DNA of 64,000 nt from Patescibacteria group bacterium (lineage in GTDB: Bacteria > Patescibacteriota > Minisyncoccia > Phycocordibacterales > JAKAEA01). The stretch lies in assembly GCA_040387855.1 (NCBI GenBank), contig JAZKCY010000001.1, forward strand, positions 846,922-910,921. Reading direction: 5' to 3'. This document shows positions 9,881 through 50,525 of this stretch, piece by piece. Position 1 is the stretch's first letter; the number at the start of each line of letters is the position of its first letter. Position numbers and translations under genes: made by a program. The notes under the pieces were generated by a model, which searched no databases, was not told the DNA's origin, and was given only the letters and a program-made list of their open reading frames with translations.

Positions 9881-12265
9881 TTACTTCTTTAGATCTCTTC
9901 TAAGAGAATATACAGCAGCTCCTAAAGCCAGTAGAGAAAGAATATACCCTATAATTAATGATAAAGGCTTAGCAAACGTTATTGTTGCTGAGTCTTTTAT
10001 GTATGTAAGTGTATATACAGGACTAGCCATGTAGGTTGATTCCCCATCCGTTCTTTTCCAAGCTGGAAAATATGTGGATGTAATAAGAACTGGTACTGCC
10101 TGCGGTGTAGATGAGGCAAATTTTACCTCTATTTTTGAATCAGTAATTAAATAAGAATCAATTGTAGGAATGTTTTTAATTGGTTGTTGAGTCTCTTTAA
10201 GAAATTCAAATATAAACCCCATAGCGGTTCGGATTACCTTTTGATCTCCATCTCGGGTTATTTGCTCTGCTACAAACCTTACATTCTTAGAACCTCTTAG
10301 TTTCTTTTCTAACCCAACAAATAATTCACTTTTATCTTGAATGAGTACTAGCGGATGTGTCTTAGCAAACTCAGTGATGCGAGCTAAAGCTTTATCATAA
10401 TTTTTATATGTATAATCTACGATAATAGCACTCTTAAAACGATCTAAATCAGGTGTAGTATCAAGATATTGGTCTTCCCCACGTGCTAAGACCATCGTAG
10501 GATCTGCTCGAAGGAACAATTCTTCCTGAAATCTGACAAAATCAAATGTAGTCGTGGTTCTCTTTTTAAAATCTGCTGGTGCAAATACAATTGTTGGCTC
10601 ATATTCCAAAGCGTGTACTTCTTTACGTACTGGATCCTTTAGATGATATATTCTCCAATGACCAAAATCTTTTTCAAGCTCCATATGAGGATCCTTTTCC
10701 ATCTGAGCTTTCATTTGTCCTGAAGAAACAATAAAGAAATTGATACCAAGTATTTGTGCACGAACTGCATCTTTATCGAATCCTTGGTTACGAAATACAG
10801 AATTTGATCTGAGATATGCATCTACCGACATTCGTTCATCTCGAGTCGAATATGCGCCTCGTACAGGCACCATAAATGGTGATTGAATAGCTGATTCTAC
10901 AAGAATATTGTAAGTACTTTTCATAGAGTCCCCTGCTTTGCGTGATATTACATATTCTAATGCACGGGCACCAGATGTAACTTCCACATTAAAGGTCCCC
11001 TTCTTATCTTTTAAATAGTCAGCTATGTCTTCTGCTCGGTCACGATTATAGCCAAAATAAAAATCGGAAATTTTATTGCTATTCATAATTGGAACCCAAG
11101 CCAAGATAAATGGGGTTGAAAATATAAGCGTGAAAAACACTTTATAAAATATACTTGGAAGGTAAAATATTATTCTATAGAGACAATAGCCCACACATAT
11201 CGCACTCAACATATAAAAGCATGGCAAGGCCCGGTAAATGTGTATTGGAAATCGTGGAAACAACCGTTCTACATGGAATGCAACTGGAATAAATAGAAGC
11301 AATGACGAAATACTCAATACAAGTATAGGCATATGTCTTTTCCGATATGCAAGAAGGCCGGCACCTACAGTAAATACAACAAGATGTGACCATCTCAACA
11401 AAAATAATCCTATTCCTGATGCACCAGGGCCAGTATCAATTCCCAGTGATCTACCCGCCATATTTCCAAAATATGCGAGCATTGGTAAATACCAAAACAA
11501 GGAAGCACCCAGTGGCAGTGCACCTAAAGCAAAAAATCGAACAAGTCTTTTGGTAAGATGCGGGTCTTGTAACCATTTTTTCGGATGAGTGAAAGCTCGA
11601 CGCTCAAGTGCTACAAACTGAACGATATAGACAACAAGAGCTACCGGTAACACATGAACACTAGCAAGCAATGTGAAAAACAATGCAACTATCGAAAGAT
11701 AATAGTCTCGTATCGATTTAGTGGCATTTAAAAAGAAATAGAGCCATATAATGAGACATATGAAACCAAACAAGTGCGGGGCTAATCCAACATGAAAAGT
11801 TCCCTGAAGTGTTACCCCCATATTTCCGTATTTGGGATAAAACATTGAAAGTAATACTGCTGCAGTAGCAACTGTAGAAGAAGCAGCCCATATATTCTTG
11901 GTATATTTATATAATATAAATCCTAATAATCCAGGGATTGCTAATGTTGATACTAAAATACATAGTTTGAATACTGCGGCATAACTAAGCGGCAGAAGCA
12001 TATATACAAAAGCTGCCACAAAATAAAACATTGGAGGATAAAACTGAGGAAATGGCATCCCATCAAACCATTTTTGTGTCCATCCCCAGGTACTTGGGAA
12101 TATATTCTTTGCATAATATTCACCTATAGCAACGTGCCCATACGAATCATTACCAGAAGGCACAGGAACGCGAATATATGTTACGAATAATTGAAAATTA
12201 AGAAAAAATAAAAGGATTGCACCTCCAATGAGTAATGAAGCGTATAGTATTATTGTCTTTTTCAC
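9881..12265 (-). CDS. Large polytopic membrane protein with a C-terminal extracytoplasmic domain; GT-C-fold glycosyltransferase-like, family unassigned
   Basis: 794 aa with about 13 predicted TM helices in the first roughly 400 residues, then a roughly 390-aa soluble domain. No WWDYG motif was seen, so it is not a confident STT3/PglB call. Its position beside pilins and glycosyltransferases suggests a role in glycan transfer or polymerisation. Confidence 0.45.
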   Translation of the reverse strand: MKKTIILYASLLIGGAILLFFLNFQLFVTYIRVPVPSGNDSYGHVAIGEYYAKNIFPSTWGWTQKWFDGMPFPQFYPPMFYFVAAFVYMLLPLSYAAVFKLCILVSTLAIPGLLGFILYKYTKNIWAASSTVATAAVLLSMFYPKYGNMGVTLQGTFHVGLAPHLFGFICLIIWLYFFLNATKSIRDYYLSIVALFFTLLASVHVLPVALVVYIVQFVALERRAFTHPKKWLQDPHLTKRLVRFFALGALPLGASLFWYLPMLAYFGNMAGRSLGIDTGPGASGIGLFLLRWSHLVVFTVGAGLLAYRKRHMPILVLSISSLLLFIPVAFHVERLFPRFPIHIYRALPCFYMLSAICVGYCLYRIIFYLPSIFYKVFFTLIFSTPFILAWVPIMNSNKISDFYFGYNRDRAEDIADYLKDKKGTFNVEVTSGARALEYVISRKAGDSMKSTYNILVESAIQSPFMVPVRGAYSTRDERMSVDAYLRSNSVFRNQGFDKDAVRAQILGINFFIVSSGQMKAQMEKDPHMELEKDFGHWRIYHLKDPVRKEVHALEYEPTIVFAPADFKKRTTTTFDFVRFQEELFLRADPTMVLARGEDQYLDTTPDLDRFKSAIIVDYTYKNYDKALARITEFAKTHPLVLIQDKSELFVGLEKKLRGSKNVRFVAEQITRDGDQKVIRTAMGFIFEFLKETQQPIKNIPTIDSYLITDSKIEVKFASSTPQAVPVLITSTYFPAWKRTDGESTYMASPVYTLTYIKDSATITFAKPLSLIIGYILSLLALGAAVYSLRRDLKK

Positions 12266-21737: not shown

Positions 21738-22149
21738 GAAACATTCAATGTACTACTTTCAAATTTAATCAATTGAAAGCTCTAAAGTGGGCGCGGCTAC
21801 CAGGAAGTGGGGGACCTGAACAACAAGCCGGCCACTTTATTACTGGAAGACCACGCTTCGCTCCGAAGAGCTAAAGAACATGATCCACTTTGGAACTTTC
21901 AATTACAAGAGCTTTTACAAACAACAATACTTACTGTTCATGGAACCCCTCGATTTCACTCGGGGTAAAAATTCCATGTAACAGGATAAAATCAAGATTT
22001 TGCAATTTAAATTGCGGTGCTTCATACATTTCCTAATAAGGATCGATTAATTAGTACATCTCGGCTCAACACATTACTGTGCGTACACCTAATGCCTATA
22101 TACGTAATCATCTCTTACGAATCTCAAACGATTTCTAATCTTGGAGTAT

Positions 22150-22180
<31 letters not shown>

Positions 22181-22336
22181 ATTTCCCGACATAGCTACTC
22201 TGCGATGCCCTTGGCAGGACAGCAGATAGACCAGAGGTCAGTTCAACTCGGTCCTCTCGTACTAGAGTCAAATCTCCTCAAAAATCAACGCCTGCAGCAG
22301 ATAGGAGACCAACCTGTCTCACGCATATTTGTCACA

Positions 22337-22662
22337 CATCACTGTGTGTATTGGACTATAGCTTCATCCCCTTTTTAAAGAAGGACTACTGACGATTAGT
22401 CTCTACGGGCTCTAGATTTCTCTAAATTCCCTCGGTATAGCCTTGATCATCAATCAAGATTCCACCGAAATTAGTCAGTTTGATTCATAAATATTTCTAT
22501 TCATGACCGCCGTGATTAGTATACTTCTGTATACTGGTTAGTTTCATATCTTGCGAATAGGTTACTCACCTATTCGACTTTGTTAAACGAAAAAACACTT
22601 TAATGTTTTCTTCCTCTGTTGGGGTTCAGACGGTTCAAGAGACAACTCACGTTATCTACTGA
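22337..22662 (-). other. Intervening sequence 1 in 23S rRNA (about 326 nt, ORF-less), a putative group I intron at E. coli position about 2585-2593
   Basis: The exon sequence ...GGTTCAGACCGT | CGTGAGACAGGTTGGTCTCCTATCTG... matches E. coli GGTTTAGAACGTCGTGAGACAGTTCGGTCCCTATCTG. It is interrupted by 326 nt that are absent from canonical 23S. The upstream exon ends in T and the insert ends in G. Confidence 0.6.
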
Positions 22663-23325
22663 ACGGTCTGAACCCAGCTCGCGTATCTTTTTAAATGGCG
22701 AACAGCCATACCCTTGGAAGCTTCTCCACCTCCAGGATAAGATGAGCCGACATCGAGGTGCCGAACACTACCGTCGCTCTGGACGCTTAGGTAGTACCAG
22801 CCTGTTATCCCTAGAGTAGCTTTTATCCGATAATCTCCGGCCGCATCTAATGCGAACCGTCGGTTCACTTTGTCCCGCTTTCGCGCCTGTTCGACAAGTA
22901 CGTCTTACAGTCAAGCAAGCTTATGCCAATACACTATCGCCACGGTTTCCATTCGCGGCTAGCTTACCTTAATGAACTCCTCCGTTACTTTTTAGGAGGA
23001 TAGCGCCCCACTAAAACTGCCCACCAGATACTGTCTCTCATCGTTTTTGCCGTTGAGGTTAGAGTGTACATCTATAAAGAATGGTATTTCACTGACGACT
23101 CCACCATCCCCGAGAGGATAGCTTCAAAGTCTCCCATCTATGCTACGCAGTAACAACGTACACGCAATATCAAGTTGCAGTAAAGCTTCTAGGGTCTTTT
23201 CGTCTAGCTGCAGGTAACCGGCATCTTCACCGGTATTGTATTTTCACCGGGCGAGTCCCCGAGACAGTTGCTCAGTCATTACACCATTCGTGCGCGTCAG
23301 AACTTACCTGACAAGGAATTTCGCT

Positions 23326-23573
<248 letters not shown>

Positions 23574-24995
23574 CAGGGCTTATATCAGTCAGCAATTAAA
23601 TCTTGCGATCCAATCACCGCCAATATTTGACCTTCTGGCATTGGTCAGGTGTCACCCCCTATACATCCTCTTTCGAGTTCGCAGGGAGCTGTGTTTTTGG
23701 TAAACAGTTGCCAAGCATACTTTAGCTGCGGCCTACTTGCGTAGGCAAGCCTTATCCCGAAGTTACGGCTGCTTTTTTGCCGAGTTCCTTGGGGACCTCT
23801 CACCCGTTCGTCTTGGTCTACTCGACCTGATCACCTGTGTCGGTTTGCGGTACGGTTTTCATAGTGATAATTTTAGGGGTTTTTCTTGGGAGCGTGCTTT
23901 CAAGACTTAGCTTGGGTTGCCCCTTGCATCGTCGCTTCATTTCCAGTCGCCATTGAAGGCAGAGTTCCGGATTTACCTAGAACTCCCAGTTAAGACACGA
24001 ACATCAATCCAATAAGATGATCTTGATACTACACCCCGTCCTCCCATCAAACACTATAAAAGTCATGGAATATTAACCATGTGTCCATCGGATGCGGCGT
24101 TTGCCATCTCCTTAGGCCCGACTAACCCTTCGCTGATTGTCATCGCGAAGGAAACCTTGATCTTTCGACGTGTATGGTTTTCACATACATTGTGGTTACT
24201 TGTGCCAACATTCTTACTTCGCAACGCTCCAGTATGGGTCACCCCTTTACCTTCATCGCTGATGCGAATACTCTCCTACCAGTATAACTATTCGAAAATA
24301 ATTATAATCCTCAGTTTCGGTACTACGCTTAGCCCCGATTATCTTCGGTGCGGAAACTCTCGATGAGTGAGCTGTTACGCTTTCTTTAAAGGATGGCTGC
24401 TTCTAAGCCAACCTCCTCATTGTCTGAGAGTTTCCACTTCCTTGAGTGCACTTAGCGTAAATTTAGGGACCTTAAATAGAGATCCGGGCTGTTTCCCTTT
24501 TGACCAATGGAGCTTAGCCCCCACAGTCTAACTGCCATGTTCTTGATCTTTGGTATTCGGAGTTTGATAGGTCTCGCGAGATTTCTCCCTGTCGAGACCT
24601 TCCAGTGCTCTACCCCCAAAGGGAACACATGACGCTAGCCCAAAAGCTATTTCGGAGAGAACCAGCTATTACCAGGCTCGGTTAGCTTTTCACTTCTTAC
24701 CACAAGTCATCCCAAGATGTTGAACGGTCTACGGGTTCGGGCCTCCATTGTTCTTTCGAACAACTTCACCCTGCTCATGGCAAGCTCGCTCTGGTTTCGG
24801 GTCTGATGCATACTACTTATTCGCGCTATTCACACTCGGTTTCCCTAGGACTCCAAGCTCTCGCTCTTAGTCATGCAGCATGCATCAACTCGTTGGCTCA
24901 TTCTTCAATAGGCACGCCGTGACGGATGCTTGCGCACCCGCTCCGACTCCTTGTAGGCATATGGTTTCAGGTCTATTTCACTGTCCTCACCGGAC

Positions 24996-25037
<42 letters not shown>

Positions 25038-25839
25038 TCTGAAAATATTTAGCCTTACCGGTTAGTTCCGGCAGATTCCTCCGAGCCATTCGTGTCTCGA
25101 AGTACTCAAGAATGACAACAAAAAAGATAATTCATTTTAACGTACGGGGCCATTACCCTCTAGGGCGCTGCTTTCCAACAGCTTGCGCTAATGAATCATT
25201 TTGTAACTTTTCTTGCTTAAAAAGCAACGTTATCACCTTACAACCCCCAGTCGTCAACTTAGAAGAGAATTGCTTCCCCACTAAGTTGAAGACTGAGTTT
25301 GGGCTTCTACGCTTTCGCTCGCCGCTACTTACGTAATACTTATTAGTTTCTTTTCCTCTAGGTACTGAAATGTTTTACTTCCCTAGGTATGCTCTAAATG
25401 CGTCAAGCGCATTAGTCTCAACTTATAGTTGAGGGGTTTCCCCATTCGGAAATCTTCGGATCGACTGTTGCCAGGCACATCCCCGAAGCTTATCGCAGCC
25501 ATGCCACGTCCTTCATCGCTTTTCAGAGCCAAGGCATCCACCATATGCCCTTACATTCCCTATTAGGAAATGTAAGAACCACAATCTTGTTTTATCCTGT
25601 TACATGTAATCTTTCGATTTCAGTAACAAGTTTTAATGTATTGTTTACCTGTTTAATCACTATTGCCCTACAAGACAATAGTGAAGTTTTTGTTCTGATG
25701 ATGTTCTTATCAAACATCACCAGAGCTCTTGCCTGTCCTCACCACCCGAAAAGACCCATATGCACTCCTGCACGTAAGTTCTTTAGTGATGGAACAGAAT
25801 TAAATTTTCAAATGACTTATTCGGACTTATATTCTTAAC

Positions 25840-25864: not shown

Positions 25865-26036
25865 TAGATACACTCTATTGCTAGGGCTTATCTATATCCG
25901 ATTAAGATTTCTTGTTAACAACATAATTTCAGTAGTGATGCCTATTATACACACCGAGAAAATAGAGTCAAGAGATTATTTAAAACAAATGAAACACCTA
26001 TATAAATCAAGCTAAGATTAGTATTTAAAGACGAAT

Positions 26037-26062
26037 GAAGCCGCACTGTTTGGTGCGGCTTC
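26037..26062. terminator. Perfect 10-bp hairpin at the left edge of the GC-rich island (possible terminator or boundary element)
   Basis: gaagccgcac tgtttg gtgcggcttc. On the plus strand it is followed by a T-rich tract. Confidence 0.3.
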
Positions 26063-26152
26063 GTGCTCATTTTATTATTCGGTAGTAGCACACCGGGCGA
26101 ATTTCTTCGCGAAAGATCAAATGTGACTCAGTTCAGGACCTCAGACGTCAGG

Positions 26153-27001
26153 TCAGCCCTTCGCCGACGGCCCAGCATGTCCGTCTTCGGGGGCGACCAC
26201 ACGGGTCGGGTCCGGGGACTCCCAGGCGTAGCTGTCGATGGGTTTCCCGTCGGTACCCGTGGGAACCCAGTCGGCCGGAGCGCGGAGGCCGTAGAGGCTG
26301 CTACCCAAGGCCTCGAGGTCGATCGGCTCATCACTTTCGTGCGTGACGTCGAGCAGCAACCCCTGACCGTCACCGACAGCGTCGGGATAGGGATCGTGGG
26401 TAATGCTCACGACCCTCAGGCTGGTCACTCGCATCCCGGTAACCGCGGAGTTGTCCGGGACCGGAATGGATACCCCAGCGAACCGCTGATCATCCTCGTC
26501 GCGCTTCGAGAAGGCCATGACGATGAGAAACCGCATGAGCGATCCTCCCGTCAAAATCTCCTCTTGGTACAGCGCATACGCCACGGCCATCAGGATGCCG
26601 ATGATGCTCGGCAGTAGCGACACCAATGCTTCCCCGAGGACGATTGCGTAGATCCCGCTGACGAGTGCAAACGCCGAGCCAAGAAGCGCAAACCACCAGC
26701 AGATGAAGACTCCGACCTCGTCGTCCGACGTGCCGTTCTCGATCTCCGTAGCCACCGCCTTGATGATCTTCATCCAGACGATGATCACGAGGAACAGGAA
26801 CAGCGAATCGAACCACCGCGAGAGGTTGATCACCGTCCCGGCCGAAACCAGGGAGAGATCAAACGACATGCGGTAGGCCTCGATCGGCACCTCCGACTGG
26901 TTGGCCCAGTACACCAGGCTCACGCTAAGCGCGAACAGCGCCCAGACAGAAGCCGGAAGCGACCAGAGGAACGACACGGTAGAAAAAAAGATTCGAGACA
27001 T
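26153..27001 (-). CDS. Island ORF 1: polytopic membrane protein with a C-terminal acidic soluble domain (282 aa), function unknown
   Basis: High-GC ORF. About 5 TM helices in the first roughly 170 aa, then a D/E/P-rich soluble tail. RBS is tcAAGGAcggtttacaATG. The overlapping ORFs in other frames look like R/G/P-rich high-GC artefacts. Confidence 0.55.
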   Translation of the reverse strand: MSRIFFSTVSFLWSLPASVWALFALSVSLVYWANQSEVPIEAYRMSFDLSLVSAGTVINLSRWFDSLFLFLVIIVWMKIIKAVATEIENGTSDDEVGVFICWWFALLGSAFALVSGIYAIVLGEALVSLLPSIIGILMAVAYALYQEEILTGGSLMRFLIVMAFSKRDEDDQRFAGVSIPVPDNSAVTGMRVTSLRVVSITHDPYPDAVGDGQGLLLDVTHESDEPIDLEALGSSLYGLRAPADWVPTGTDGKPIDSYAWESPDPTRVVAPEDGHAGPSAKG

Positions 27002-27065
27002 TGTAAACCGTCCTTGATTGAGAACTAATGGATACTAAACCGAACGATTCGGCCTATATCCACGC

Positions 27066-27102
27066 TGTGTATATATTACCATATTTTATACATAAAGTCA
27101 AA
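27066..27102 (-). promoter_or_regulatory. Near-consensus sigma70 promoter for island ORF 1 (TTGACT-17-TGgTAATAT)
   Basis: Minus strand: tTTGACTttatgtataaaatatggTAATATatac. -35 lies at revcomp 27096-27101 and -10 at revcomp 27073-27078. Confidence 0.5.
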
Positions 27103-27103
27103 T

Positions 27104-27136
27104 AAAAAAGACCCCACACAACTATGTCGTGCGGGG
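27104..27136 (-). terminator. Rho-independent terminator of island ORF 2
   Basis: Minus strand: ccccgcacgacatagttgtgtgggg followed by TCTTTTTT. One G.T wobble in an 8-bp stem. Confidence 0.5.
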
Positions 27137-27216
27137 CCCTTGCATTTCGAGAACGGTGGAAAATGCTCACCGATAAAGATCAAATCTCATGACGCTACGC
27201 TACTATGCCCTGTCAA

Positions 27217-27759
27217 TCAGGCCGGCCGCATGATCACGTGCATCGCGCGGCGCTTGAGGGCCTTCAAGAAAATCTTGGGCTTCATGACCGCAGCCCGGAG
27301 GCGCGGCATCTTGCAGTCCACGTAGTGGATGACCAAGCAGCAGACGCCGAGAATGATCAGTCCAATCCCCCCGAAGAACGCCATGCTCACGCCTTGGCCG
27401 GCGAGCGTCCCGAACCCCATGAAGAGGAAGGAGACCATGCCGATCCACACGTATACCTGGTCGTAGCTGAACGACTTGCCCCAGAGCATGCGGCGCCCGT
27501 AGGTGTCGTGGCCGGCGGCGTCCTTCTCCTTGCGGAGGGTCATGCCGTAGCAGAACGACCAGTGGCCGATGAACGCCATCAACCCGAGGGTAATGAGGTC
27601 CACGAACCGGGGGCCGTTGACCGCCTCCATGAAGAAGCGGCTCGGCCGGGCGTTGTTCCAGAGCCACGGCGTGCCGAAGGTCAGGATCACGAGCCCCCAG
27701 ATGCTGGCGATCGCGAGCGTGACCAGGAGAGCGAACACGTAGGACTTGATGCGGAACAT
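27217..27759 (-). CDS. Island ORF 2: four-TM membrane protein with a basic C-terminal tail (~181 aa), function unknown
   Basis: The ORF track gives 27217..27840, but the likely start is the internal ATG (revcomp 27757-27759), which is preceded by tcAAGGAcggttcccATG. The sequence is MFRIKSYVFALLVTLAIASIWGLVIL.... Confidence 0.55.
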   Translation of the reverse strand: MFRIKSYVFALLVTLAIASIWGLVILTFGTPWLWNNARPSRFFMEAVNGPRFVDLITLGLMAFIGHWSFCYGMTLRKEKDAAGHDTYGRRMLWGKSFSYDQVYVWIGMVSFLFMGFGTLAGQGVSMAFFGGIGLIILGVCCLVIHYVDCKMPRLRAAVMKPKIFLKALKRRAMHVIMRPA

Positions 27760-27829
27760 GGGAACCGTCCTTGAAATGAGAGCTGACGTGCATACGACCG
27801 GACTGTCCGGCAATAACACATCCTGGGTA

Positions 27830-27858
27830 TATGATATCATATTTATACAAATTTGTCA
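27830..27858 (-). promoter_or_regulatory. Near-consensus sigma70 promoter for island ORF 2 (TTGACA-17-TGaTATCAT), divergent partner of the ORF 3 promoter
   Basis: Minus strand: TTGACAaatttgtataaatatgaTATCAT. -35 lies at revcomp 27853-27858. Confidence 0.5.
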
Positions 27859-27867
27859 AATATATTA

Positions 27868-27895
27868 TTTGACTTTATTTATTTATATGATATAA
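27868..27895 (+). promoter_or_regulatory. Near-consensus sigma70 promoter for island ORF 3 (TTGACT-16-TGaTATAAT)
   Basis: TTGACTttatttatttatatgaTATAAT. -35 is at 27868-27873 and -10 at 27890-27895, with an extended TG. Confidence 0.55.
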
Positions 27896-27994
27896 TACAT
27901 ACTAAGGAAAAGCGTTCGGTTACTCTCGGTCTCCGGGAGCGACGCTAATCCAAGACTCCTGTTACCTGCGAATTTCGCAGGAGGAGAAGGTATC

Positions 27995-28471
27995 GTGATT
28001 GGAATGATCCAGAGCACGCTTCGTCAGTTCGCCCTCACCAGCAACGATCCCAGCCTCGACCTCACCCAGAGGCGGCAGGGGTGGCAGCCCAGCTGGATGT
28101 GGGTGCGGATGGGTGACCTTGTGCAGGCGGTGAACAGCGCCCACCCCGAGCTCTCTCCCTTCGACCAGAAGATCTGGACCGGCAAGGAGCTCGGAAACAC
28201 GTTTGCCGAGATCAACCGGATCCAGACCTTCTGGTTTGTCATGGAGGGCTACAAGGAGCCCCAGTACGAGAACATCGTCCGCGGCATCCCGCCCAGGAAC
28301 ATCCCGTTCGACCAGCTGGAGCTCTTCGTCCCCGCAGTCTGGGCCGAGCAGGTCTTCGCGATCACCCGCAAGGGCATCACGGCGATCCTGTGGATGAGCA
28401 ACAAGCCCTACGGTCAACGCGGAACGAACATCGTCGCCATCGACGAGATTCTCAAGGCCGCCGCGGCCTAA
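27995..28471 (+). CDS. Island ORF 3: hypothetical cytoplasmic protein (158 aa)
   Basis: GTG start 9 nt downstream of GGAGG. The SD is partly sequestered in the perfect hairpin cctgcgaa-t-ttcgcagg (27965-27981). No recognisable domain. Confidence 0.55.
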   Translation: MIGMIQSTLRQFALTSNDPSLDLTQRRQGWQPSWMWVRMGDLVQAVNSAHPELSPFDQKIWTGKELGNTFAEINRIQTFWFVMEGYKEPQYENIVRGIPPRNIPFDQLELFVPAVWAEQVFAITRKGITAILWMSNKPYGQRGTNIVAIDEILKAAAA

Positions 28472-28510
28472 AATAATGTACCCCGACAATTCACCGGGAA
28501 TGTGAATTAA

Positions 28511-28562
28511 GAACCCCGAGCCCCGGAGCCTGCGAAAGCACGCCCCGGGGTTCACTATTTTA
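28511..28562 (+). terminator. Rho-independent terminator of island ORF 3
   Basis: gaaccccg...ccggggttc forms an 8-bp GC-rich stem with an internal loop, followed by ACTATTTTAT. Confidence 0.5.
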
Positions 28563-28576
28563 TACAAACCCATAGT

Positions 28577-28604
28577 TTGACTTTCTGTATTTTTATGATA
28601 TAAT
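28577..28604 (+). promoter_or_regulatory. Near-consensus sigma70 promoter for island ORF 4 (TTGACT-16-TGaTATAAT)
   Basis: TTGACTttctgtatttttatgaTATAAT, the same architecture as the ORF 3 promoter. The 5' UTR contains the 12-bp perfect palindrome CCACACGTGTGG (28641-28652). Confidence 0.55.
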
Positions 28605-28691
28605 TAGCACAGACATACAAAGGGTTCGAGTAGTGGTGATCCACACGTGTGGTCCCTATTTTAATCCAATGTATACCTGGGAGATCCTGAT

Positions 28692-29156
28692 ATGTTGAAC
28701 ACTTTAATGAGCCGTGCGGCAGCGTACATCAACACGATGCCCGAAGGCTCCAGCACGCGCAACCGTGCGTCGGCAGCGTTCGCACTGGCACAAGCGATCG
28801 CACTCTCCATGGCTCAACGCGAGCCGCGGGAGTCGAAGTTCGTGATGTTCACGAACCAGCAGCTCCAGCGCGCGTTCGATGTCCTCCGGCACTACAACGT
28901 GGAGACAGTCACCGACCACGAGTGCCTGGAGCCGGCGATCAAGATGTTGGCCTGGGCATTCATCCAGACCGCCAACGGCTTCGGTGAGAACATCGAGCGC
29001 GACATCAAGCTCGTGTTCATCGAAGGTGATCACTACAACGTCATCCACGAGGACACGCTCCACCGCGCGTTGACCTGCATCCGTGAAGGAGCAAAGTCGA
29101 TCGTAGCCGGAATCCCGGAGCTGGCCGGTGTGATGCACCCCGAATCCACAGTCTGA
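28692..29156 (+). CDS. Island ORF 4: hypothetical cytoplasmic protein (154 aa)
   Basis: ATG preceded by GGGAG at -8. High-GC codon usage. No recognisable domain. Confidence 0.55.
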   Translation: MLNTLMSRAAAYINTMPEGSSTRNRASAAFALAQAIALSMAQREPRESKFVMFTNQQLQRAFDVLRHYNVETVTDHECLEPAIKMLAWAFIQTANGFGENIERDIKLVFIEGDHYNVIHEDTLHRALTCIREGAKSIVAGIPELAGVMHPESTV

Positions 29157-29200
29157 AAGTACATGCCCATCTTCGCAGGCATATAGAAAAGCGAACAACC

Positions 29201-29250
29201 GAGCCCCGACACCAGAGACTTACATCTGGTGCCGGGGCTCTTACGTTTTA
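29201..29250 (+). terminator. Rho-independent terminator of island ORF 4
   Basis: gagccccgacaccag agacttacat ctggtgccggggctc forms a 15-bp stem with one mismatch, followed by TTACGTTTTAG. Confidence 0.55.
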
Positions 29251-29261
29251 GTAATCTACAA

Positions 29262-29307
29262 AATTTTATATAAAAAATGGTCAGGTCTCCCGGAGGAAAC
29301 CTGACCA
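29262..29307 (-). terminator. Rho-independent terminator of island ORF 5
   Basis: Minus strand: tggtcaggt ttcctccgggag acctgacca (perfect 9-bp stem) followed by TTTTTTATATAAAATTTT. It starts 5 nt after the stop codon. Confidence 0.6.
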
Positions 29308-29311
29308 TGTC

Positions 29312-29683
29312 TCACATGGCCTTCGGCCAGTTGGGACAACTCAACTTGTACATTCTCTTCTCCACTGCATCAATGTGATGCCAGTAGCACTTGAGGCATA
29401 CTGGACATTGCTTGATGATACAGCCAGAATCGGCTGTCCTATCCCCGCTTCGAGGAGGACAACACGTGGAGTAGCCTACTACATCTTCAAATCGTCCGAG
29501 ACTGTCTGTCAGCACGAAGCTACATCCCCGCTTAGCGCAGCGGTACTCACCGTGCGCAATCCGAGGACTCCACTGCACGCCCCACGAATCGTCGGTTGGC
29601 TTTGGAGCAGCACCCGAGCTCGTCATCTCAATCACCACCGGTACTAGCACTTGAAGTACCGCGGTTCCCACAATCTTTTCCAT
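29312..29683 (-). CDS. Island ORF 5: small Cys-rich protein (~124 aa; 10 Cys, zinc-ribbon/knottin-like pattern) with a hydrophobic N-terminus
   Basis: The ORF track gives 29312..29737, but the likely start is the ATG at revcomp 29681-29683 (MEKIVGTAVLQVLVPVVIE...). The AGGA of the SD sits in the loop of a perfect 8-bp hairpin, catacgaaAGGAttcgtatg. Cys clusters are CAKRGC, CCPP, CIIKQCPVCLKC and SCPNW. Confidence 0.5.
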   Translation of the reverse strand: MEKIVGTAVLQVLVPVVIEMTSSGAAPKPTDDSWGVQWSPRIAHGEYRCAKRGCSFVLTDSLGRFEDVVGYSTCCPPRSGDRTADSGCIIKQCPVCLKCYWHHIDAVEKRMYKLSCPNWPKAM

Positions 29684-29762
29684 ACGAATCCTTTCGTATG
29701 AATGCCTGAGGTTTAAGAACAGAAGTCCCGCCGACACATGCCGGCGGGATTGCCCGTTGGAT

Positions 29763-29790
29763 ATAATAGAATAAATACTAGTTTTGTCAA
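29763..29790 (-). promoter_or_regulatory. Near-consensus sigma70 promoter for island ORF 5 (TTGACA-16-TATTAT)
   Basis: Minus strand: TTGACAaaactagtatttattcTATTAT. It is followed in the 5' UTR by the GC hairpin cccgccg...cggcggg (29722-29743). Confidence 0.5.
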
Positions 29791-37238: not shown

Positions 37239-38066
37239 TTATTGAGGTAATGAATATGTGCTCCAACGTCTCTCACCCTCTTTTTTAATAAGACCTTCTT
37301 CAACCAGAGTCAGCAGTTCTCGTTGGATAGTTTTTTCACTATAATCTTTTACTACCGCAAGGAAGTCTTTAATACTGAGATTGTTTTGCTGTCGTAGCAG
37401 CGCAAGAATTGCCTCTCTACGCTCACTTTTTTTTACGGGGGAATTATCCTGAGATTCTACAGTGTGCTGAGATCGCTGTTGAACAGTTACATCTGGCCTA
37501 CTTACTTTTTTATCATAAGTGGGCACTACTGATTCTCGCACTCCTGTATTTCGATTACTTCCAAACCCTTGGCTAGCAGCTACAGCAGCTTGATGATGCT
37601 TCATCTGTAAATCGATATCTGCAAATAGAGTTGTATCAATAACCATCTTTGAAGCATATCGAGATGAAACTTTTGAAATGAGATCTTTCACTTTTGAAAT
37701 TTCTCGTTGGAGGACATTCGAATTCATTTCTGAAACTATCCCCGACCAATATGCCATTGAAAGATATGATCCCAACTCAAGGACATGGGCAGAGAGAATT
37801 TGAAGCAAATGCTGCTCTGACTTTAACGAAGCAATAAAAGACACGGAATCGTTCAAGCATTTTAAACAACTTTCCCTCAAAGACAATTTCATTATTTCAG
37901 TGTCAGGCAACTCATTAGTCACAAGGAAAAGAGCAGCTACAACATTCTCCACTCTTCTATAGAGAATATAGATATCATAATCACCTTTAAAGGCAATTGG
38001 ATCATATACGAGTCCCATTGATTGATTGTCCTTTTGGTAATTATTGTCCTTTTTGAATTCTGACAT
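37239..38066 (-). CDS. Hypothetical protein with a C-terminal winged-helix DNA-binding domain (putative transcriptional regulator, 275 aa)
   Basis: The C-terminal ...REAILALLRQQNNLSIKDFLAVVKDYSEKTIQRELLTLVEEGLIKKEG... has an HTH-like pattern. It is divergent from ftsK. Confidence 0.45.
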   Translation of the reverse strand: MSEFKKDNNYQKDNQSMGLVYDPIAFKGDYDIYILYRRVENVVAALFLVTNELPDTEIMKLSLRESCLKCLNDSVSFIASLKSEQHLLQILSAHVLELGSYLSMAYWSGIVSEMNSNVLQREISKVKDLISKVSSRYASKMVIDTTLFADIDLQMKHHQAAVAASQGFGSNRNTGVRESVVPTYDKKVSRPDVTVQQRSQHTVESQDNSPVKKSERREAILALLRQQNNLSIKDFLAVVKDYSEKTIQRELLTLVEEGLIKKEGERRWSTYSLPQ

Positions 38067-38108: not shown

Positions 38109-38214
38109 TGTCCATTATATATGGGACAGTGTCTTTGTCAAAAAATCCTTGGTTAGAGCGCTTATTTTTTATGACTTATATGATATTTTTCCCATGTCTA
38201 TGCTAAAATAGACA
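38109..38214. promoter_or_regulatory. Two 20-bp TGTC-N12-GACA palindromes in the regulator/ftsK divergent intergenic region (candidate operators)
   Basis: TGTCCATTATATATGGGACA is at 38109-38128 and TGTCTATGCTAAAATAGACA at 38195-38214. The second overlaps an extended -10-like TGcTAAAAT. Confidence 0.35.
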
Positions 38215-50243: not shown

Positions 50244-50525
50244 TCAGGGGTTGGGCTTGGTTGCCGGCTTGGTAGCAGCTCGACGTGCATTTACCCGGGC
50301 TTCCAGGTTCTGCTTAAATGCAGTAACTGGGTCAAATTCGGGTGATATTGGTGCTGTCGCTGCTGGTGCAGGCTGACTAGCTGGTGCCACAATTGGCTGC
50401 GCAACCTGCTCAGCCTGGGGATGGTCATCGATCATCATGTCGATTACGTAATATCCCCCAACCACAATCGCGATCAAACCGAAGCAGCCGAGAATGACGA
50501 GGAACATTCGGACGAACGTGGGCAT
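50244..50525 (-). CDS. Hypothetical small membrane-anchored Pro/Ala-rich protein (93 aa)
   Basis: N-terminal TM helix followed by a P/A/Q-rich tail. Confidence 0.4.
   Translation of the reverse strand: MPTFVRMFLVILGCFGLIAIVVGGYYVIDMMIDDHPQAEQVAQPIVAPASQPAPAATAPISPEFDPVTAFKQNLEARVNARRAATKPATKPNP

Follow-up and report, generated by a model that had tools for sequence, protein, structure and literature searches.

The window analysed here, a 64-kb stretch of chromosomal DNA, stems from an environmental metagenome-assembled genome (MAG) of a Patescibacteria group bacterium with a GC content of about 37%. At 26.1-29.8 kb it contains an island of five predicted one-gene transcription units. Probably, though by no means with certainty, these units are five autonomous, moron-like cassettes of a fast-evolving accessory gene class, residing in the chromosome of a Paceibacteria-type member of the Candidate Phyla Radiation (CPR). 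The cluster would occupy a variable hot-spot slot between a conserved gene, here called host209, and the promoter of the 23S rRNA gene. Each cassette would be monocistronic and would comprise a strong housekeeping-sigma promoter of the rRNA type, a leader, a Shine-Dalgarno (SD) site, the open reading frame (ORF) and an intrinsic terminator. Such promoters would give each gene high and position-independent expression. The stem-loop at the start of the leaders probably protects the 5' end, and the leaders of the ORF3 and ORF5 families may additionally work as regulatory elements. Of the presumed cargo proteins, two span the membrane several times, two are small and soluble, and one is zinc-ribbon-like.

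The island is set off by its base composition. ORF1 (26153-27001) and ORF2 (27217-27759) are on the minus strand, ORF3 (27995-28471) and ORF4 (28692-29156) on the plus strand, and ORF5 (29312-29683) is again on the minus strand. The five have 54-63% GC, as against 12-45% in the island spacers. The GC content at third codon positions (GC3) is 0.80, 0.95, 0.89, 0.81 and 0.57 for ORF1 to ORF5, while that of host genes is 0.22-0.31, and the third positions of the first three ORFs are nearly devoid of A and T. At first codon positions (GC1) the island ORFs range from 0.52 to 0.59. The frames of all five were confirmed by the periodicity of GC over the codon positions.

In front of each ORF there is a promoter close to consensus. 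P1 (27073-27101, minus strand; TTGACT-17-TGgTAATAT) matches at 9 of 12 hexamer positions and has the weakest -10 element of the five. The others all reach 11/12: P2 (27831-27859, minus strand; TTGACA-17-TGaTATCAT), P3 (27869-27896, plus strand) and P4 (28577-28604, plus strand), which both read TTGACT-16-TGaTATAAT, and P5 (29763-29790, minus strand; TTGACA-16-TATTAT, without TG), which begins 19 nt past the stop codon of host209. The -35 hexamers agree with TTGACA in five or six of six positions throughout. At the -10 element, agreement with TATAAT is complete in P3 and P4, 5/6 in P2 and P5 and 4/6, with TG, in P1; spacers measure 16-17 bp, and the TG extension is found in four of the five (P1-P4). 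All five promoters point the right way and lie 60-100 nt upstream of ORFs with an SD site. By hexamers, spacing, position, excess over chance and conservation they thus appear to be promoters of the sigma-70 housekeeping type. P3 and P4 are identical in 32 of 40 positions.

An earlier first-pass annotation, made from the letters of the window, had listed these promoters, and a check of all five found them as described. It had also noted that P2 and P3 stand back to back. Their -35 hexamers lie at 27854-27859 and 27869-27874, one base from where that annotation had put them, and are indeed 9 bp apart. Together these two -35 regions make up an inverted repeat of 8 bp without a mismatch, GTCAAATA-TAT-TATTTGAC (27851-27876). 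It could be a single operator at which a dimeric regulator acts on both P2 and P3; it may equally be a mere by-product of two TATTTGAC contexts at the -35 position.

Matches of this quality are rare. The chance expectation was taken from first-order Markov simulations (n=3000). For the 950 nt of non-coding DNA in the island it amounts to 0.035 sites with at least 11 of 12 matches; four are observed, and none of the 3000 simulations yielded four. For the whole window about 2.8 such sites are expected by chance. There are only six: four in the island, the 23S rRNA promoter at its left edge (25944-25971, minus strand; TTGACT-16-TATAAT, 11/12), which serves as a host comparator, and the promoter of one host gene. 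The latter, at 38141-38114 on the minus strand, is the sole perfect promoter of the window (TTGACA-16-TATAAT, 12/12); it drives a gene (37239-38066) for a 275-aa host protein with a C-terminal helix-turn-helix of the DeoR type. For all other host genes with a gap upstream the score is 8-10 of 13, while this one reaches 12, and no match comparable to those of the island was found for the rplJ-rplL operon. The assertion that such promoters are not typical of the host is thus right for most host genes and wrong for the 23S rRNA gene and the gene at 38141, whose promoters are as good.

The promoters are also conserved. The hexamers of P5 are kept in four related loci (L118, L001, L038 and L034; L-numbers denote loci from other genomes that were compared with the window), while the spacer drifts, and the promoters of the ORF3 family are conserved in L002, L121 and L124. 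The core common to P3 and P4, TTGACTTT..TATGATATAAT, has 77 matches in metagenomes, which are generic promoters of unrelated low-GC bacteria; none of the 77 has a GC-rich ORF behind it. Many of these unannotated matches share a downstream leader and are presumably rRNA promoters of Firmicutes.

Each unit has a 5' leader of 60-100 nt with an SD site, and in units 1, 2, 3 and 5 the leader opens with a stable stem-loop (fold z = -2.9, -1.2, -3.4 and -4.5, respectively). The leaders of unit 1 (27002-27066, minus strand; stem-loop 27028-27063) and unit 2 (27760-27824, minus strand; stem-loop 27785-27822) are related to each other, with 54 of 78 positions identical and z = 8.5 against shuffles. Their stem carries a compensatory change, CCGAA/TTCGG to CCGGA/TCCGG. 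The common SD context TCAAGGACGGTT, which the first-pass annotation had pointed out, is real, apart from one extra base that ORF1 has in front of its ATG (tacaATG versus cccATG). The leader of unit 3 (27897-27994, plus strand) folds into two hairpins, the second of which is located directly 5' of the SD site. That of unit 4 (28611-28691, plus strand) is weakly structured (z = 0.1) and has the motif AAAG(G/C)GTTCG in common with unit 3. In unit 5 (29684-29756, minus strand) a 5' hairpin (29726-29749) is followed by a second one (29679-29702), whose loop contains the SD site and whose stem contains the AUG.

Two of these leaders can be traced through relatives. The unit 5 leader is conserved in L001, L038, L036 and L118; in the closest relatives, L118, L001 and L038, five of the seven pairs of its 5' hairpin show compensatory changes. 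The two-hairpin leader of the ORF3 family recurs in L002, L121 and L124, and among the four sequences 8 of the 13 pairs of the first hairpin are compensatory. A covariance model built on the ORF3 leaders gives 79-96 bits for the four (79.5 bits for that of the window); it found nothing else in 469 kb and matched neither the ORF4 leader nor that of any other unit. Its alignment ends at the GTG at 27995, which favours this codon as the start of ORF3 (158 aa); the NCBI annotation has 155 aa from the ATG at 28004 (hypothetical protein V4519_04795 [Patescibacteria group bacterium], on a contig of 981,549 bp). No Rfam family matches the leaders at gathering score; the only match at E up to 1, to isrK, is due to chance.

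At the other end, each unit is closed by an intrinsic terminator hairpin, with folding energies from -21 to -33 kcal/mol and z of about -5.3 to -8.6. The terminators of units 1 (26037-26062; -21.1 kcal/mol, z = -5.6), 2 (27107-27141; -25.3 kcal/mol, z = -5.5) and 5 (29277-29308; -28.9 kcal/mol, z = -7.6) are on the minus strand, those of units 3 (28518-28553; -26.7 kcal/mol, z = -5.4) and 4 (29201-29240; -32.6 kcal/mol, z = -8.6) on the plus strand; the hairpin of unit 1 is bidirectional. Like the leaders, the 3' untranslated regions (UTRs) go in pairs. Those of ORF1 and ORF2 are related (z = 3.8), and those of ORF3 and ORF4 share CCGAGCCCCG (z = 3.7). An identical 11-mer, ATTTGATCTTT, is seen on the minus strand at 26112-26122 and 27175-27185, 34-35 nt past the stops of ORF1 and ORF2; it may be a processing or binding site. 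None of the paralogous flank motifs has a further copy in 522 kb of related DNA. As judged from these comparisons, the flanks are paralogous within the pairs 1/2 and 3/4, while the cargo ORFs have no detectable relation. The claim that such uniform, strong signals serve high and autonomous expression is borne out as far as each ORF has its own promoter, leader, SD site and terminator; that expression is also high is probable.

On the left of the island lies the 23S rRNA gene (22033-25564, minus strand), with 23S and 5S linked at 21.6-25.6 kb on the minus strand; on its right, at 29.8-31.5 kb, are rplJ-rplL and host209. The latter is the name given in this report to the conserved 209-aa gene upstream of P5 (29809-30438, minus strand). 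More than 2000 homologues of host209 were found at E <= 1e-40; those named among the 120 listed, as well as the 28 loci from GTDB, all belong to Patescibacteria/CPR. Where the contig of a GTDB representative extends to the 23S gene, 23S comes after host209 in the same orientation at a distance of only 0.36-2 kb, with a gap that is either empty or taken up by an ordinary transmembrane (TM) protein of 230 aa. In the window the gap measures 4.2 kb, which implies that the island fills a variable slot. The ORF5 unit directly follows host209 in the closest relatives, L118 (host209 96% identical over its full length), L001 and L038 (both 88%, over partial C-terminal stretches). Its protein is only 37-43% identical to these syntenic copies, while the promoter and both hairpins are conserved. 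L001 has a different GC3-rich gene at the position of ORF4, convergent with its ORF5 homologue.

Some further observations on the locus may be added. Between rplL and host209, divergent from the latter, the close relatives L118 (2-589, minus strand) and L120 (6887-7618, minus strand) harbour a GC-elevated orphan family (GC 0.53-0.54, GC3 about 0.56), which is absent from the window and marks a second variable slot. In seven assemblies of relatives (L006, L007, L009, L012, L013, L020 and L032) the contig ends 1-4 kb past host209, at the 23S gene or inside it, which suggests that the slot is systematically under-assembled in short-read MAGs. Host209 itself has an N-terminal part resembling a winged helix-turn-helix and, in its C-terminal part, a nucleotidyltransferase-like motif (GFFIQNWDSRVDLLVVGD); in PADLOC it has a hit to PDC-M05A, a candidate defence family (1.6e-13). 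The 23S gene contains a group I intron (22332-22549, minus strand; Rfam, 51.8 bits). The 64-kb window holds neither a 16S gene nor any tRNA. A repeat comparison over the window did not reveal direct repeats flanking the island, and domain searches of the ORFs at the locus yielded no integrase, recombinase or transposase.

Genes of a similar kind are found elsewhere in the lineage. Orphan genes with a GC3 of 0.72-0.85 occur in six loci of Parcubacteria/Paceibacteria (L015, L028, L020, L023, L018 and L022). They comprise L015 3157-3804 and 11499-12152, L028 2198-2818 and 11416-12120, L022 11682-12221, L020 2207-2623 and L023 13632-14423. A promoter of the form TTGAC(A/T)-17-TGnTA..AT precedes those in L015, L018, L020, L023 and L028, and a terminator follows them in L015 and L028, the two that were checked for it. 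Over 33 loci, a promoter score of at least 11 is reached by 10 of 16 GC3-shifted ORFs versus 14 of 364 background genes (p = 8e-10). When the window is excluded, the figures are 6/10 and 13/322, and the association persists (p = 3e-6).

How such genes evolve can be judged best from L015 and L028. Two syntenic GC-rich families share only 26-30% protein identity between these loci, their neighbours 76-82%. At four-fold degenerate sites the neighbours are 31-55% identical and have a GC content (GC4) of 0.22-0.42; the GC-rich genes have a GC4 of 0.74-0.85 in both. That this value is kept while the four-fold sites of the neighbours have diverged argues for a GC shift that is maintained or constantly renewed, and not for the fading signature of a donor. 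The cassette genes thus appear to evolve several times faster than their neighbours and to keep an abnormally high GC3. The split of the A-family GC-rich gene of L018 (11488-12029) into two adjacent ORFs (11488-11760 and 11760-12029) may reflect a frameshift or a pseudogene.

The ORF3 family has no fixed neighbourhood. Its members adjoin cysS, marR and dnaB in L002, a Ham1-like gene and a desaturase gene in L121, and genes of an extracytoplasmic function (ECF) sigma factor and a Liv-type ABC transporter in L124. All three have a perfect -35 element and/or a TG-extended -10 element of their own and their own terminator. It seems, from these comparisons, that the ORF3 and ORF5 families are inherited as whole units together with their leaders. 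In L124, from an unrelated genome, the ORF3 homologue stands beside a second GC-shifted orphan (1625-2161 and 2351-2809; GC3 of the orphan 0.68), which has its own promoter (TTGACA-17-TAGAAT, with TG), and both adjoin the ECF sigma factor gene. The window, too, has a sixth, isolated mini-cassette (50244-50525, minus strand) between genes for a class II aminoacyl-tRNA synthetase and an M16 peptidase. It encodes 93 aa at 55% GC, with a TM segment at the N-terminus and a tail rich in Pro and Ala, and has its own promoter (TTGACC-17-TAGGCT) and terminator.

What the island proteins do can be guessed at best. ORF1 (282 aa) has about four TM segments and an acidic C-terminal domain, ORF2 (180 aa) is a multi-TM protein, ORF3 is soluble and of the alpha/beta type, ORF4 (154 aa) is soluble as well, and ORF5 (123 aa) combines a hydrophobic N-terminus with a zinc-ribbon-like domain (CxxC...CPxC..H). 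When 1.84 billion representative proteins were searched in full with HMMER, ORF3 had about 10 distant homologues and ORF5 about 27; ORF1, ORF2 and ORF4 hit only themselves. In Pfam, PHROGs, NCBIfam and PADLOC nothing significant was found for any of the five. AlphaFold models support a zinc-ribbon-like fold for the ORF5 family (mean confidence score, pLDDT, 82) and an alpha/beta fold for the ORF3 family (pLDDT 83). Neither model has a significant structural neighbour in the PDB, nor has that of ORF3 in BFVD. The ten GC3-shifted genes of relatives gave a similar picture: no Pfam domain, and no hit in phage, plasmid, IMG/VR, PHROGs, PADLOC or NCBIfam searches. One might speculate that the proteins act at the envelope or in interactions with hosts or phages, under diversifying selection.

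BLASTP detects no similarity among the island ORFs. For ORF4 against the profile of the ORF3 family, hhalign gives a probability of 0.8%, which leaves remote homology unsupported. An in-frame similarity of 36 nt (72%; 28268-28303 and 28986-29021) links ORF3 at codon 92 with ORF4 at codon 99 (ENIvRgI/ENIeRdI). The sole match in hhalign, between residues 115-130 of ORF3 and 124-139 of ORF4, is collinear with it. These collinear similarities hint at a remote paralogy but are not significant.

A phage, plasmid or synthetic origin, a parallel drawn in the first-pass annotation, found no support. No similarity to 50,697 phage or 72,556 plasmid records emerged from tblastn and blastn, and four scans of IMG/VR and a viral fold library yielded no match; the locus lacks an integrase, a tRNA and flanking repeats, and related bacteria show this architecture in environmental assemblies obtained independently. 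Similar grounds speak against a synthetic or vector construct: there is no plasmid match, the ORF3 protein is on record from an environmental MAG, and independent metagenomes contain homologous units. That the island represents the remains of a prophage, an inserted plasmid, a construct or a chimeric assembly is in our view very improbable and largely refuted. Admittedly, the cassette design looks engineered, and two of the moron criteria apply. Yet similarity to phages or plasmids is missing at the level of DNA, protein and fold, rRNA and housekeeping genes flank the island, and the pattern is the same in independent assemblies from other studies. A chimera, moreover, cannot yield GC-rich ORFs that alternate with AT-rich spacers every few hundred bases. 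Even less credit is due to the idea that the promoter matches are unused by-products of AT-rich spacers. Such DNA does yield promoter-like hexamers, as the expectation of about 2.8 for the window illustrates, but in the non-coding DNA of the island four sites stand against 0.035 expected, all are correctly oriented, the hexamers persist in relatives while the spacers change, and other genomes likewise show the association of GC3 shift and promoter quality.

The main rival is the recent arrival of a horizontal island from a high-GC donor, be it a bacterium outside the CPR or a high-GC Paceibacterium. The high GC3 would then be a transient signature of the donor, and the promoters would have been carried along or recruited later. 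The sharp jump in composition at the island, its absence from the equivalent slot in 28 related species and the orphan status of ORF1, ORF2 and ORF4 speak in its favour. High-GC Paceibacteria do exist; L026, for instance, has 55% GC, and there the GC3 of the ordinary 230-aa TM protein is 0.85. Gene transfer between Patescibacteria, which is reported to be frequent (PMC12455944), also counts in favour. Nevertheless we regard such a transfer as unlikely. From start codon to terminator, each ORF is framed exactly by AT-rich signals of the host type, which have paralogues within the island; both families that have homologues, those of ORF3 and ORF5, occur with the same unit architecture in genomes of low or medium GC; the GC4 shift outlasts the synonymous saturation of the neighbours in syntenic orthologues; and integrase, tRNA and direct repeats are missing. 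The Muto-Osawa relation provides a yardstick for GC1 versus GC3 of a donor, and the GC1 of the island ORFs is low for a donor with a GC3 of 0.9. Quite unlikely, in our opinion, is an origin by duplication in place, of 1/2 and of 3/4, followed by a GC-biased hypermutation or conversion restricted to the ORFs, or by selection for GC-rich mRNA, with the flanks being conserved. The homology of the 5' and 3' flanks within the pairs would be accounted for (leaders 1/2, z = 8.5; 3'UTRs, z = 3.8 and 3.7), as would the similar size of ORF3 and ORF4 (158 and 154 aa) with their two weak collinear similarities; across species, too, the coding parts of the class diverge faster than their own leaders. However, ORF1 and ORF2 differ in length (282 versus 180 aa), no pair shows similarity by BLASTP, the hhalign probability for ORF3/ORF4 is 0.8%, and the ORF3 leader model does not recognise the ORF4 leader. 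Nor was a mutator found: there is no reverse transcriptase domain in the ORFs examined and no template repeat in the window.

The interpretation of the island as five autonomous cassettes of a fast-evolving accessory class is not free of difficulties either. It leaves the high GC3 unexplained, and no transfer mechanism, be it integrase, transposase or repeats, is visible. ORF1, ORF2 and ORF4 are singletons, which belong to the class by architecture and composition only. Sequence and fold searches of the PDB were negative and, together with the empty domain searches, led to no functional assignment. Use and strength of the promoters are deduced from the sequence, and the generic nature of the P3/P4 core, with its 77 unrelated matches, means that part of the near-identity may be due to convergence on the consensus. 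All these points weigh against it.

A more far-reaching possibility, which we put forward tentatively and consider rather doubtful, is that Paceibacteria, and perhaps other bacteria with small genomes, possess an undescribed class of cassettes. Their GC3 would be held at 0.7-0.95 in genomes of 35-47% GC, they would diverge several times faster than their neighbours, and they would always come with their own rRNA-grade promoter and a structured leader specific to the family. If so, one would have to postulate a GC-biased process restricted to ORFs, such as hypermutation or conversion tied to extreme transcription or to cassette exchange, or else selection in favour of mRNAs that are GC-rich and resist RNases. 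Among the products one could imagine arms-race proteins directed against hosts or phages.

Why should such a locus matter? The CPR/Patescibacteria make up a large share of bacterial diversity and are mostly uncultured, and their promoters and strongly expressed genes are almost undescribed. The island offers sequence-defined candidates for strong promoters, leaders and terminators of the CPR, which might be used as genetic parts or as anchors for studies of transcription starts. A recurrent class of fast-evolving orphans with such a composition runs counter to the usual rule that foreign DNA comes to resemble that of its host. Provided that the shift is indeed maintained, the action of selection or biased conversion on GC could be tested here at the resolution of single genes, and the encoded proteins would be prime candidates for an interface between symbiont and host or between symbiont and phage.

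Several known systems invite comparison. Like genomic islands and integron arrays, the island is a cluster of accessory genes of deviant composition at a variable locus, with turnover of the cargo between relatives. It differs in lacking an integrase, a tRNA target, direct repeats and attC-like sites. Integron cassettes are typically promoterless, while here each gene has its own promoter; an integron cassette array was rejected for these reasons. A site-specifically integrated genomic island was likewise discarded, there being no recombinase domain, no tRNA in the window and no flanking repeats. So was a diversity-generating retroelement: no repeat is common to the island and the rest of the window, and the ORFs examined contain no reverse transcriptase domain.

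Putative mobile promoters, as reportedly described by Matus-Garcia and colleagues in 2012, are near-identical upstream regions in front of non-homologous genes. This is reminiscent of the promoters and leaders of units 1 and 2 and of the promoters of units 3 and 4, which are paralogous in front of ORFs without detectable relation. The island copies, however, are only 70-80% identical, and the 3' flanks are shared as well, which means that the whole expression chassis is repeated. In their architecture, the promoters resemble the strong extended -10 (TGn) promoters of low-GC bacteria, including those of rRNA, with which they share a TTGAC(A/T) -35 element, an AT-rich spacer of 16-17 bp and a -10 element of the TATGATATAAT type. 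They differ in what they drive: small orphan accessory genes, one each, instead of operons for rRNA or ribosomal proteins.

The leaders of ompA, ermC and aprE carry 5'-terminal stem-loops that act as stabilisers. Units 1, 2, 3 and 5 likewise begin with a hairpin a few nucleotides from the predicted 5' end, followed by an accessible SD site, and may well be protected in the same way. The leaders of ORF3 and ORF5 go beyond this pattern by conserved residues in loops or bulges and a hairpin that touches the SD site and the AUG, which suggests regulation in addition to stabilisation.

The closest relatives in design are the phage morons of Hendrix and colleagues. A moron is recognised by its own promoter and terminator, a deviant GC content and its insertion between conserved genes, with hot spots (PMC2920897). 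Here, too, single genes with their own promoter and factor-independent terminator and of deviant composition are wedged between conserved genes, and one hot spot receives different cargo in different genomes. The differences are the lack of a phage or prophage context, of phage genes and of PHROG matches, the upward direction of the shift, GC-rich in an AT-rich genome and apparently maintained in syntenic orthologues, and the conserved leaders specific to each family. Since all the traits of a moron recur except the phage context that defines it, we would not file the island as a moron; in its working, it would nevertheless be moron-like.

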